Part shown: positions 2,895-64,000 of the stretch, piece by piece
Layout: each line of letters opens with the position of its first letter
Numbering within the stretch: position 1 is the stretch's first letter
Assembly: GCA_951406725.2 (NCBI GenBank)
Contig: OX597830.1
Span: 75,950,001-76,014,000 of the forward strand
Direction: 5' to 3'
Length of the DNA: 64,000 nucleotides
Origin: Octopus vulgaris
Lineage: Eukaryota
Program-made: the position numbers and the translations under genes
Notes under the pieces: generated by a model
Databases searched by the model: none
What the model was told of the DNA's origin: nothing
What the model saw: only the letters and a program-made list of their open reading frames with translations

Positions 2895-3752
2895 GGCGCA
2901 GGAGTGGCTGTCTGGTAAGTAGCTTGCTTACCAACCACATGGTTCCGGGTTCAGTCCCACTAAGTGGCATCATGGGCAAGTGTCTCCTACTATAGCCTCG
3001 AGCCAACCAAAGCTTTGTGAGTGGATTTGGTAGACAGAAACTGAAAGAAGCCCTTCGTATATATGTATATAGTTAAGTTAAGTTAATTTTTTGGCTCAAA
3101 AAGCAAAAAGCAAGGCCATGTAGGGGGACATGGAGTTATGTACAGGGTGGTGTTCATGTAAAGAGTTCAGGCCACTTGAGGTCAAGGGAGACTTTGAACC
3201 GAGCGGTCGTCGGCATCTTCAACATCTCGTCTGGCAGCTTATTCCACGGATCCGCAACCCGGACGGAGAAAGCCCCTCTCCTTCGATTGAGATGAAATCG
3301 TCGCAGATAGAGCTTTTCGGAGTGACCCCGCAGCCGACGCCCTTGAGCAGGAGTGAAGAACAGCTCATTCAAGAGGTTACACTTTCCGCTTATGATGTTG
3401 TGAGCAAGAATGAGATCACCACGGCGTCGTCGTTTTTCTAGAGAATAAAGGTCGAGCGTCTTCAGCTTTTCTTCATAAGACAAATGCTTGAGACCAAGAA
3501 TCTACATATATATGTATGTGTGAGTATATGATTGTGTGTCTGTGTCCCCCCCCCCCCGCCACATCGCTTGACAGCCGATGCTGGTATGTTTACATCCCCG
3601 TAACTTAGCGGTTCGGCAACAAAACCCGATAGAATAAGTACTAGGCTTACAAAGAATAAGTCCTGGTTTCGATTCGCTCGACTAAAAAGACAGTGCTCCA
3701 GCATGGCTGCAATCAAATGACTGAAACAAGTAACAGAGTAAAGAGTAAGAGT
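2895..3752 (+). mobile_element. SINE family A (tRNA-derived, internal microsatellite), split by a CR1 fragment
   Basis: head ggcgcaggagtggctgtctggtaag..ggttcagtccc (A/B-box-like), gggcaagtgtc CORE-like motif, tail gtgctccagcatggctgcaatcaaatgactgaaac-(aagagta)n. Confidence 0.9.
3072..3501 (-). pseudogene. 5'-truncated CR1-clade LINE, ORF2 C-terminus plus 3' UTR
   Basis: LSYEEKLKTLDLYSLEKRRRRGDLI...LRGHSEKL...FSVRVADPWNKLP is the typical CR1 ORF2 end; (TTAAC)n tail; sits in the (TA)n of SINE A. Confidence 0.9.
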
Positions 3753-8546: not shown

Positions 8547-8961
8547 TATCAGGGTTTTGTTACAATGCTAAACTGTACTGTATCCTTATATATGATATCT
8601 TCGTGAACAGAAAAATAGGGTTTAGTCAAGCTGTTTCAATCTTGTATTTCATCAGCTCATAAATTAACTCTTTAAATACTTCAAGGTGGTGCTCCAGTAT
8701 GGCTGAAACAAATAAAAGAATACGGACAGAGTGGTGTTACACAAACAAATGTAATTAAATGCTCACACACATAAACAGAGAGAGGTAGAGACATTGCAAT
8801 TTATTAATTGAACATAAACGACAGAACATTTTCCTTCACTCATACACATAAATAAAAATATGCTCACACATCAACAGAGAGAGCGCCCAAACAAGAGATG
8901 TCAAATAAATCAGTGGTAAATCAGCAATGCCAAATAAGCAGTGCCAAAATGTTTCCTATCC

Positions 8962-15382: not shown

Positions 15383-15556
15383 TCGATCTGTTCAAATAAA
15401 TGCAGTGCTCTAGCATGGCCGCAGTCAAACGACTGAAACAAATAAGAGAATAAAAGAATATAGGAATCTGATTTCCTATGTTCTTTTATTCTCTTATTTG
15501 TTTCAGTCGTTTGACTGCGGCCATGCTAGAGCACTGCATTTAGTTGAACAAATCGA
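15383..15556. repeat. Fold-back duplication of a SINE A tail (~84 bp arms, 6 nt loop)
   Basis: near-perfect palindrome centred on ataggaa-tctgat-ttcctat (loop 15467-15472). Confidence 0.9.
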
Positions 15557-16590: not shown

Positions 16591-16611
16591 TGTATATATA
16601 TATATATATAT

Positions 16612-16690
16612 TTTTCATTTCATTTCATCTAGTTTCAGCTCACGAGCTGTGGCCATGCTGGGGCAATGCCTTTCAAAACAATGTGTTACT
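16612..16690 (-). mobile_element. LINE-derived 3' tail fused to the 5S copy
   Basis: minus strand: ggcattgccccagcatggccacagctcgtgagctgaaactaga-(tgaaa)n; matches the LINE 3' UTR at 40919-40960. Confidence 0.85.
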
Positions 16691-16789
16691 CTTACTGCAC
16701 CTAGGTTTCCCAAGCGGTCACCCATCTAAGTACTGACTAGGCTCGACGTTGCTTAACTTCGGTGATCGGACGAGAACCGGTGCTCTCAA
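16691..16789 (-). pseudogene. 5S rRNA-derived sequence lacking roughly the first 18 nt (retrocopy or SINE3 head)
   Basis: TTGAGAGCACCGGTTCTCGTCCGATCACCGAAGTTAAGCAACGTCGAGCCTAGTCAGTACTTAGATGGGTGACCGCTTGGGAAACCTAGGTGCAGTAAG is colinear with metazoan 5S; internal box A and box C are retained. Confidence 0.93.
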
Positions 16790-16798
16790 AATATATAT

Positions 16799-16832
<34 letters not shown>

Positions 16833-40740: not shown

Positions 40741-40965
40741 TTGCACAAAGTAGATGTAGGTTTTTTTTAATCAAAGCTGGACCTCTTCCTGTCGAGAGTC
40801 CAAAATGAACCTACATCACGGAAAGAGGTGCAAATGAGGGTAGCTATATCAAACTTCATTCTTCCCTAAGTGCGACATATTAGAGGAGGCTCTTAGTAAT
40901 AACAGTGTAGCACAAAACGGCGGTGCATCAGCATGGCCGCAGCTCTGAGCTGAAACTAGAAAAAT
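40741..40965 (+). pseudogene. 3' end of a CR1-group LINE; candidate donor of the SINE A/5S/U6 tail
   Basis: LHKVDVGFF*SKLDLFLSRVQNEPTSRKEVQMRVAISNFILP*VRHIRGGS* fits the FK.KLD.FL..VPDEP..SNS motif; UTR ggcggtgcatcagcatggccgcagctctgagctgaaactaga. Confidence 0.8.
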
Positions 40966-41473
40966 AATAATACAAATGTTTGCATTACATGTATATTTCA
41001 TACATTTCAAACATGGCACAAAAACAGTTTAGCATCGCGCATTAAATATTATTGTACATAATTTAGGCGTTCTTTCATTGAGACATACTGAGAAAATAAT
41101 TGGAATAATTTACCCTTTGTAGATTTTTTTTCAATATATACAATTTCATAGTTAATTAAGCAGATCTTTTATTAATCATTTTTGAGAAGAATCTTTTGCC
41201 AATTATATTTCTATGATCATCACTTCTTTCTGTGTAGAATTTCAGATTATTCTTACATCTACTAAAAATATTTATAAATATATGTACACACACAAACACA
41301 CACACACATACACACACACAAACTTCACGCACACACACACACATATTTACAACGAAATTTATTACATATATATGTAGATTTAATCTCTAATACAGTATAG
41401 TATTACAACACAATAGTGGTAGTACAACAGTAATTAAATTCAAATGAAAACAAGTCTTTGTCATTGTATCATT

Positions 41474-55269: not shown

Positions 55270-55760
55270 GTGAAAAGTGAAAACCACGCTGGTTAATGCT
55301 GATAATAAAATACTTGATCCGACTAACACGAGCACTTAATTAACGGAAATCCATTAAATGGTTGGCAATTATAGAAATACTATGAAACATTTAGGTATCA
55401 AACAATTACGGCAGTCTTCCTGCCAGCTGCGATCACTCTGCACGATACAGAACAGAGGAGATTAGGAAGGGAAAGAATTGCGTCCACTGTTTAGTGAAAT
55501 CCGATTCAAGGGAGGTAATTCAGACAGTTACTAATGTTTGTTCATATATCTGGAAAGCAATATAATGTATAATATAATATAATATAATATAATATAATAT
55601 AATATAATATAATATTGTATTATATAATATAATATAATATAATATATATATATATATTATATTTTATTTTCGTCATTGTACAGCATGTCTAAAAGAAAAA
55701 AAAATTAGCTTTACTAGTGTGGCATGCTTGTCGCAAAATGCTGTCTATATTCCTATATAT

Positions 55761-55804
<44 letters not shown>

Positions 55805-55812
55805 ATAGATAG

Positions 55813-55859
<47 letters not shown>

Positions 55860-55930
55860 TATTAGAGACAAAACCACTATTTTGCAAAACAAACAAGGAA
55901 AGACTTAATCAATACATGTATGTATGTATA

Positions 55931-55991
55931 TTTATTTATTACTTTTGTATGTTTCAGCCTTTAGGTTGTGGCCATGCTAGGGCACCGCCAG
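55931..55991 (-). mobile_element. LINE-derived 3' tail fused to the U6 copy
   Basis: minus strand: ctggcggtgccctagcatggccacaacctaaaggctgaaacatacaaaag-(taaa)n. Confidence 0.85.
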
Positions 55992-56094
55992 AAAAAAAAA
56001 ATATGGAACGTTTCACGAATTTGCGTGTCATCCGTGCGCAGGTGCCATGCTAATCATCTCCGTATCGTTCCAATTTTTATGTACTACCGAAGCA

Positions 56095-56098
<4 letters not shown>
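55992..56098 (-). pseudogene. U6: U6 snRNA retrocopy, near full length
   Basis: GTATTGCTTCGGTAGTACATAAAAATTGGAACGATACGGAGATGATTAGCATGGCACCTGCGCACGGATGACACGCAAATTCGTGAAACGTTCCATA-T10; ACAGAGA box mutated to ACGGAGA; upstream is (TG)n with no PSE/TATA promoter. Confidence 0.95.
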
Positions 56099-56128
<30 letters not shown>

Positions 56129-56216
56129 CAACACACACACACACACACACACACATACATACATACATACATACATACATACATACATACATACATACAT
56201 ACATAGAAAGACACAT

Positions 56217-56267
<51 letters not shown>

Positions 56268-56271
56268 AATA

Positions 56272-56656
56272 CTAGCAGTATCGCCCGGCGTTGCTCAGGT
56301 TTGTAAGGGAAATAACTATAAAGCATTTTTAGAGAGTTATAGCCAAAAAATAGCAAAGAAATGGAAAAAAAATGATGGTAAATTTTTTTTGAGAGTTAAA
56401 AAAGGTCGAGTTGCGTCCCCTAGACAGTCTGTGGTTTGTGTTTCTGATTCTCGACCCCATGTCGAATTTATCGATTTTTTTCAGAACTGGGGGAACTTTT
56501 CAAAATTTCCGCTGCGTTAGTTTTGAATTATGACATTGGGCTATGTGTGTGTCAAGTTTCATCAGAATCGGTTGAAAGCCGTGGTCAGGGTGAGGGTACA
56601 ACCAAACAGACACACAGAAACACACACAGACAAACTGCCGTTTATATAGAGAGAGA
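56272..56656 (-). mobile_element. Non-autonomous Helitron
   Basis: minus strand: TCtctctctatataaacggcag...cctgagcaacgccgggcgatactgCTAG, inserted at A|T. Confidence 0.8.
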
Positions 56657-62584: not shown

Positions 62585-64000
62585 CAACTAGCAGGACTTG
62601 CTACCCTGGTCTCATTAGCTACGGCACTCCCAGTCCGCCACTCAGCGGTTGTTGACAGCAGATCTGACGAGTGGAGCACATCCCTTCCGCAGAAAGCTGA
62701 AGAGCAAGCGCTCCATCTTGGGTCAGCCATGTAGCAGGGCAAGAGATGACGGTCAGATGGTAGTATATGACTGAGGCGATGCATGCATTCGCCATCTTTT
62801 CCCGACCTTTCAGGGACAGCTTCCTCTCAAGCCATTTCTAGGTGAGATTGGCTACCCTGCTCGTCACATCTCCCAGTTCTTGTTCACCTGGAGGTCCGGA
62901 CCAAACCAGACACCAAGTAATTTAACCGGTCCTTCCGTCTAGCGCCCTAGCACGCTGTTGCTTAGCATGGCCCTGCTTCTCCAGGTACCGAACTGCAGGC
63001 CCTCCGACTTGTCCTGATTAATTACCACTTCGTACTCTCTTAAGGTAGAGCCAATCACCAAGATTTCCGAGCTATCCGACGCTATTACGGTGACGTCATC
63101 TGCATAAGCTGACACGAGCCTTCCACATCCTAGATAACGCGGGATACCCTTCGAAACATCCATCTTCTTCAGTAATGGCTCGATAGCAAGCACGTACAGA
63201 AGCGAAGAGAGTGGGTATCTTTGACGGACCGATTGAGCGGTGCTAAACGATTCCGATAGATGGCCGTTTTTATTTTGACCACCGAACAGATGTCGCTATA
63301 CATTGCAGCGATCCAGCCTCCAAGTATTGATAGTCGACCTCGTCGAAAACTTTTGACTAATCCTAATTAATCAGAGTCCCACCCATACCAGGTTCCTTCC
63401 CTTCCCTCTCTATGATGTAGCGCGTGAGGTGGAGGTTATCGTGGATAGATGTGTTCGGAATAGTGCGTGTCTGCGCGTCACCGACAGCTTACCGACGAGA
63501 AGCGCCAATCCCTTGGCTCACACCGTGGCCAAAATCTTATAATCTACATTTAAGAGAGTTATGGGCCTAAAATTATCTATTTGGTCCTCCTTGCTCAGGT
63601 CCTTTCTCGGCAGCACCATTGCAACACGGTTCACAGTATCGGGTATTCTCCCCTTCTGCTGCCAATTGTAGTAGACATTAAGACGGAGAACTGGTAGAAT
63701 TGTTTGCACGCCGGGCGAAATGCTTATCGGTATTTCGTCTGTCTTTACGTTCTGAGTTCAAATTCCGTCGAGGTCGATTTTGCCTTTCATCCTTTCGGGG
63801 TCGATAAATTAAATAGCAGTTGCGTACTGGGATCGATCTAATCTACTGGCCACCTCCCCCAAAATTTCGGGCCTTGTGCCTAGACTAGAAAAGAATTGTA
63901 GTAGACATTCGCCAAGTGATTGATCACCGAACAAGTTTGGCACATGAAGACAAGGCTCGAAGGGTAGACCATCAAGGACCAGAGACCTCTTTTGTGCAGC
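62585..64000 (-). pseudogene. Decayed Tx1/L1-clade LINE ORF2 (reverse transcriptase), running off the window end
   Basis: PGLDGLPF.., NFRPITLLNVDYKILA, LAIEPLL..VSAYADDVTV..INQDKS; many stops and frameshifts. Confidence 0.9.
63680..63893 (+). mobile_element. SINE B (B2 tail) inserted in the Tx1 element, 16-bp TSD
   Basis: TSD aattgtagtagacatt at 63664-63679 and 63894-63909. Confidence 0.93.

Follow-up and report, generated by a model that had tools for sequence, protein, structure and literature searches.

The minus-strand element at 55931..56098 of the 64-kb stretch of Octopus vulgaris DNA analysed here (the window) is probably a single chimeric retrocopy of the group IV type of Doucet et al. 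(2015), in which the U6 snRNA is joined to the 3' end of a non-LTR retroposon. We read it as group IV because a full-length, sense U6 stands 5' of the retroposon tail and a run of T residues forms the junction. The sequence-only reading of the same DNA had proposed a chimera of U6 with a retroposon tail and had taken a single retrocopy as the default explanation, and our analysis supports it on both counts. A single chimera would extend the capture of U6 by tail-recognising retroposons from vertebrates to a mollusc, a modest extension, and the 168-nt piece would show the step that places a new head on a LINE-recognised tail, which is a proposed route to new SINEs.

Reading the sequence along the minus strand, the 168 nt run from U6 through ten T residues and the dinucleotide CT into a 61-nt, two-hairpin tail. 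The parts of the element and its immediate flanks, all given on the minus strand, were:

56098-55997: full-length but decayed copy of the U6 snRNA, by alignment to Rfam RF00026
55992..56001: run of ten T between head and tail, corresponding to the 3' oligo-U end of U6 and to a Pol III terminator
55991-55931: the whole retroposon tail, 61 nt
55970..55989: hairpin 1 of the tail, the core common to the retroposon tails of the window, starting 2 nt past the junction
55955..55968: hairpin 2 of the tail in a variant of its own, with C-G where the SINE has U-A and with one pair broken
55931..55954: A-rich spacer and terminal repeat (TAA plus two TAAA), the likely priming end
56099..56271: 5' flank, a (TA)n/(TATG)n/(GT)n microsatellite at the position of a U6 promoter
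55848..55912: 3' flank, a piece of another AT-rich repeat with two further copies in the window at 80-83%

The head matched RF00026 with 88.8 bits (gathering score 44, E 2.3e-21) over model positions 1-105 of 105, and it was the only match to this family in the 64 kb. The layout given by the sequence-only reading, namely a near full-length U6 followed by T10, CT and a tail on the minus strand, stands with the correction that U6 is full length by the Rfam model, the alignment showing a 4-nt gap in its 5' part. TAAA units are indeed present at the end described there as (TAAA)n, which amounts merely to TAA plus two such units. By analogy with the L2 case in PMC4476161, we consider this short repeat likely to have been the priming end for reverse transcription. 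One 9-nt word is common to U6 (56044-56052) and hairpin 1 (55971-55979) on the minus strand; it was equalled in 35 of 2000 shuffles, lies away from the junction and is possibly due to chance.

Counted by eye from the Rfam alignment, the U6 copy has 4 mismatches across the 53-position conserved core, one of them an A-to-G change inside the ACAGAGA box. This box pairs with the 5' splice site. The 140 nt upstream of the copy consist of (GT)n and (TATG)n and contain no TATA-like hexamer, the nearest such hexamer lying 141 nt upstream within a (TA)n run. The decay of the copy, together with the microsatellite upstream and its lack of a near TATA-like hexamer, indicates that this is not a working gene, and a functional U6 gene was rejected on the missing promoter and the ACAGAGA change. 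In vertebrates, snRNA genes have external promoters, and Pol III is halted by oligo-T (PMC4494074). Two obstacles, the absence of a promoter and the T10 terminator, therefore stand in the way of ordinary Pol III transcription across the tail, and T10 precedes the tail at a place where a classical Pol III SINE has no terminator. For comparison, two of three SINE bodies examined were free of T4 and one had T5, and the 5S-headed element described below has T4. The chimeric copy is probably dead. No convincing exon of a host gene was found near the U6 locus, and the chimera is not inserted in a SINE.

The tail of the chimera belongs to a module that recurs throughout the window. A fuzzy search with its core motif returned 20 copies (20 shuffles gave 0-1 each), comprising 17 SINE-type ends, one tail on a 5S-headed element, one without a recognisable head and the U6 chimera itself. 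The SINE-type carriers are of tRNA type. None of 2000 shuffles aligned to the tail core of the window as well as the U6 tail did. Structural alignment of 18 of the 20 tails, with the copy at 8689 (which has no hairpin 2) and the copy at 15534 (identical to 15405) left out, gave a two-hairpin structure in which 92.1% of 216 cells were paired and two pairs of hairpin 2 were changed on both sides. This combination of paired share and covariation score was reached by 1 of 500 shuffles, and slid controls were paired to 19-41%. These values support a structured module with compensatory changes in stem 2 between tail types, and the support falls short of proof since the structure was derived from the same sequences and the changes go back to two or three lineages. 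The folding energy of the U6 tail by itself was unremarkable (z -1.23); the structure rests on the comparison among tails. The available portions of PMC4758252, PMC4824008, PMC7245038, PMC10886601 and PMC6007223 contain no description of the two-hairpin tail. Searches for the tail motif in metagenome, viral and prokaryote collections returned 0 matches each, these being collections in which DNA of this animal is not expected. A preference of the tails for microsatellite sites was considered and rejected (6 of 20 versus a background of 18%, p = 0.13). Within 15399-15540, a pair of identical SINE tails lies in inverted, facing orientation, one at 15405 on the plus strand and the other at 15534 on the minus strand.

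Within this module the U6 tail stands apart from the SINE tails. It agreed with the SINE majority at 30 and departed from it at 8 of 38 positions, compared with 34 differences in 532 positions for 14 SINE tails against their own majority, and its terminal repeat is likewise unlike that of the SINE tails. This distance from the SINE majority points to a third tail variant, absent elsewhere in the window, as the donor. By these comparisons the donor of the U6 tail is not the abundant SINE, and it was presumably a LINE or SINE carrying a tail variant that is otherwise absent from the window. The carriers that are neither tRNA-type nor U6-headed were:

16610-16804, minus strand: 5'-shortened 5S rRNA copy (Rfam 5S, 67.6 bits), a spacer of about 20 nt and a two-hairpin tail variant ending in (TGAAA)n
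40917-40975, plus strand: tail of the 5S-type variant without a recognisable head, the DNA upstream of it having no repeat match in the window

The former is a candidate 5S-headed SINE or 5S chimera, and the repeat table for O. vulgaris lists four '5S' SINE families (PMC13282606). The headless tail shows that very short tail products occur; it begins at the same boundary as the tail borne by U6, which suggests that products stopping just beyond hairpin 1 are not rare. Because the same module bears both tRNA-type and 5S heads, heads appear to have been exchanged on it. With tRNA-type, 5S and U6 heads on one tail within 64 kb, this genome is well suited to finding out why amplification is seen for heads with an internal promoter and not for U6.

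None of the 20 tails had a LINE ORF upstream of it. What the sequence-only reading had called a LINE tail of CR1 type is a retroposon 3' end common to SINE-type and 5S-headed elements, as the comparisons above bear out; its origin from a LINE, and from CR1 in particular, is not visible in the window. Two LINE remnants were present:

3071-3501, minus strand: CR1-like ORF end (3501-3154), two-hairpin 3' UTR and (TTAAC)3, lying inside the internal microsatellite of a SINE
62600-63700, minus strand: decayed L1/Tx1-like reverse transcriptase fragment (RVT_1, E 2.4e-6)

We take the ORF end at 3501-3154 to be CR1-like from its C-terminal motif; it was assigned to no Pfam family, and its Atlas matches were unnamed. 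The UTR behind it was weakly similar to the U6 tail, matching it at 12 of 13 nt, a match equalled by 76 of 2000 dinucleotide shuffles and 21 of 2000 plain shuffles, and was otherwise unlike the U6 tail, terminating in (TTAAC)3. The L1/Tx1-like fragment has lost its 3' end and is interrupted on its 5' side by another repeat. For the clade behind the tail we put Tx1 at roughly even chances, consider CR1 a weaker candidate, and regard any other clade as less likely still.

In the survey of Doucet et al. across 48 vertebrate genomes, U6 was found joined to L2 and Mon-1 in platypus and to L2, RTEX-2 and AnolisSINE2 in Anolis (PMC4476161). The earlier statement that U6/L1 chimeras are known in mammals can be broadened, with L2, Mon-1, RTE and AnolisSINE2 as further partners (PMC4476161). 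The U6-L2 chimeras of platypus contain short LINE parts, and 72.5% of the 40 cases have target-site duplications (TSDs) 1-9 bp long (PMC4476161). Our element resembles these group IV chimeras of stringent LINEs in that U6, in sense orientation, precedes a short retroposon end, that a simple repeat takes the place of poly(A) and that the tail is common to SINEs. TSDs in that group are short or absent, and no TSD abutting our element was found. As in that group, the snRNA lies directly 5' of the retroposon end in the same orientation and lacks the flanks and promoter of an snRNA gene. It differs in that its U6 is full length, as was the case for only 1 of the 40 in platypus, and in that its host is an octopus and not a vertebrate.

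In human cells, RtcB ligates U6 to 5'-OH RNA, and the junctions carry 4-8 T (Moldovan 2019, PMC6789731). Mammalian U6/L1 chimeras share with the present element the full-length U6, the T-run at the junction and the 5'-truncated retroelement behind it (PMC6789731, PMC11838501), but they have shorter T-runs than the 10 found here, they have a poly(A), which is absent here, and a 6-19-bp TSD, which was not found here, and a variable 3' part of L1 takes the place of the structured 61-nt tail. The SINEU elements of crocodilians (Kojima 2015, PMC4494074) are similar in their snRNA head without internal promoter, their internal oligo-T and a possible link to Tx1. In contrast to the octopus element, they have U1 or U2 heads, poly(A) ends and many copies of common structure (PMC4494074), whereas the chimera ends in two hairpins and a short TAAA repeat. 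No LINE shares the 3' end of SINEU-1 (PMC4494074), whereas the tail described here is common in the window. Searches of open-access papers turned up no invertebrate U6 chimera or U6-headed SINE. A fungal chimera is reportedly the subject of one paper. The word 'invertebrate' is absent from PMC4476161 and PMC11838501.

For a single chimeric retrocopy, we propose that a stringent LINE protein would bind the two-hairpin tail of a tail-bearing RNA and prime at its short TAAA end, after which the reverse transcriptase would copy about 60 nt, until just beyond hairpin 1. The enzyme may then have moved by a template switch onto the 3' oligo-U end of U6, to which we give slightly better than even chances; alternatively, with chances a little below even, U6 would have been ligated beforehand to a tail fragment, as RtcB does in human cells. 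The product would have landed among microsatellites without a promoter and then decayed. The ten T residues lean slightly toward an oligouridylated U6 3' end and template switching, and slippage after insertion could also explain them. A thousands-fold excess of tail-bearing elements over chimeras would be expected for independent switches (PMC4494074); the ratio in the window was 20 tails to one U6.

Whether head and tail arrived together bears directly on this reading. No TSD abutting the chimera was found, both flanks being microsatellite, and a single-event insertion is for that reason not proven. The sole candidate, a 9-mer at the 3' edge, is repeated 166 nt upstream, and the same 9-mer turned up in 22 of 114 control stretches rich in microsatellites, which puts the candidate at chance level. 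The divergence of the head, 4 of 53 against the Rfam consensus and not against the host's own U6, was not distinguishable from that of the tail, which a loop change and the broken pair put at no less than 2 of 38 (Fisher p = 1; wide intervals of 2-18% and 1-18%). Both ages come to roughly 15-22 million years and that of the SINE tails to 18.6 million years, these being rough figures with a rate taken from PMC13282606. That the two parts were inserted separately, side by side, one as a U6 retrocopy without a promoter and the other as a retroposon fragment consisting of the tail alone, seems to us improbable. It would account for the missing TSD around the pair, a tail-only fragment does exist at 40917-40975, Doucet et al. 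read a TSD-less U6atac/Alu case in this way (PMC4476161), and RTE-type elements favour sites near T-stretches (PMC6007223). In the RTE signature, however, the T-stretch precedes the TSD by about 10 nt (PMC6007223), and here CT alone separates the T-run from hairpin 1, which leaves no room for the TSD of a second insertion or the poly(A) of a first. In addition, with 20 tails in 64 kb, a tail on the same strand would start no more than 5 nt from a given point by chance with a probability of about 0.0008.

A different account concerns copy number and not assembly. The chimera may be one copy of a low-copy, SINE-like family, that is, of an undescribed octopod family of U6-headed retroposons that uses the same tail as the tRNA- and 5S-headed elements and was amplified without an internal promoter; its master would be re-mobilised through the two-hairpin tail, with transcripts reading through from a Pol II promoter in the flank, as in the model put forward for SINEU. 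We know of no U6-headed SINE-like family so far, and, if real, this would be the first U6 SINE and the first snRNA-headed SINE outside crocodilians. We consider it unlikely, if less so than separate insertions. In its favour, and against a single chimera, the junction lies 2 nt ahead of hairpin 1, so that the tail amounts to the minimal module common to SINEs and nothing more, and the tRNA-type and 5S heads on this module in the window indicate that heads are exchanged. T10 also exceeds the 4-8 T of human junctions, a further point against a single chimera, and SINEU amplified despite having no internal promoter and an internal oligo-T (PMC4494074). The O. vulgaris annotation moreover contains uncharacterised 'U' and 'U-L1' SINE families, of 369,490 bp and 52,753 bp respectively, and two recent 'U-L1' insertions total 353 bp, about the length of the chimera each (PMC13282606). 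The available text does not state the snRNA type of either family (PMC13282606), and 'U-L1' may equally derive from U1 or U2, as SINEU does. Further evidence against such a family is that the 64 kb hold one copy, that the head has no excess divergence, and that T10 and the lack of a promoter exclude ordinary Pol III amplification.

The neighbourhood offers another route by which one chimera could have been multiplied, namely as passive cargo of an upstream Helitron-like element whose 3' end was bypassed, without being a SINE; several copies with one and the same junction would result. The neighbour in question, outside the chimera, is:

56272..56656, minus strand: short non-autonomous Helitron-like element with a TC start and a CTAG end, between A and T

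We take the TC start, the CTAG end and the insertion between A and T to be Helitron features. The Helitron-like end at 56272 lies on the same strand, 173 nt upstream of U6, as this account would have it. Against it, a second 3' end of the element, at 2539-2605 (95.5% over 67 nt), borders unrelated DNA, and the 3' flank of the chimera at 55345-55556 was covered by one contig each in sequencing runs X1 and X4, as expected of single-copy DNA. We regard cargo transport as the least probable of the accounts weighed here, and prefer the single group IV chimera.

The contig comparison covered four sequencing runs (X1, X3, X4 and X11) against the tail and the 3' flank, with 55752-55991 left out as repeat. 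Five contigs aligned, and all fell on the 3' flank. The stretch 55345-55556 was matched in X1 with 6 differences and in X4 with 5, and 55672-55751 was matched in X3 and X4. Across the contigs of 24 sequencing runs, the best share of 20 sequence words was 0.30 and none reached half, small shares being a weak measure. The segment 55345-55556, which is not repetitive, is about 97% conserved in X1 and X4. These two runs have five differences from the window in common, four of which are A where the window has G.
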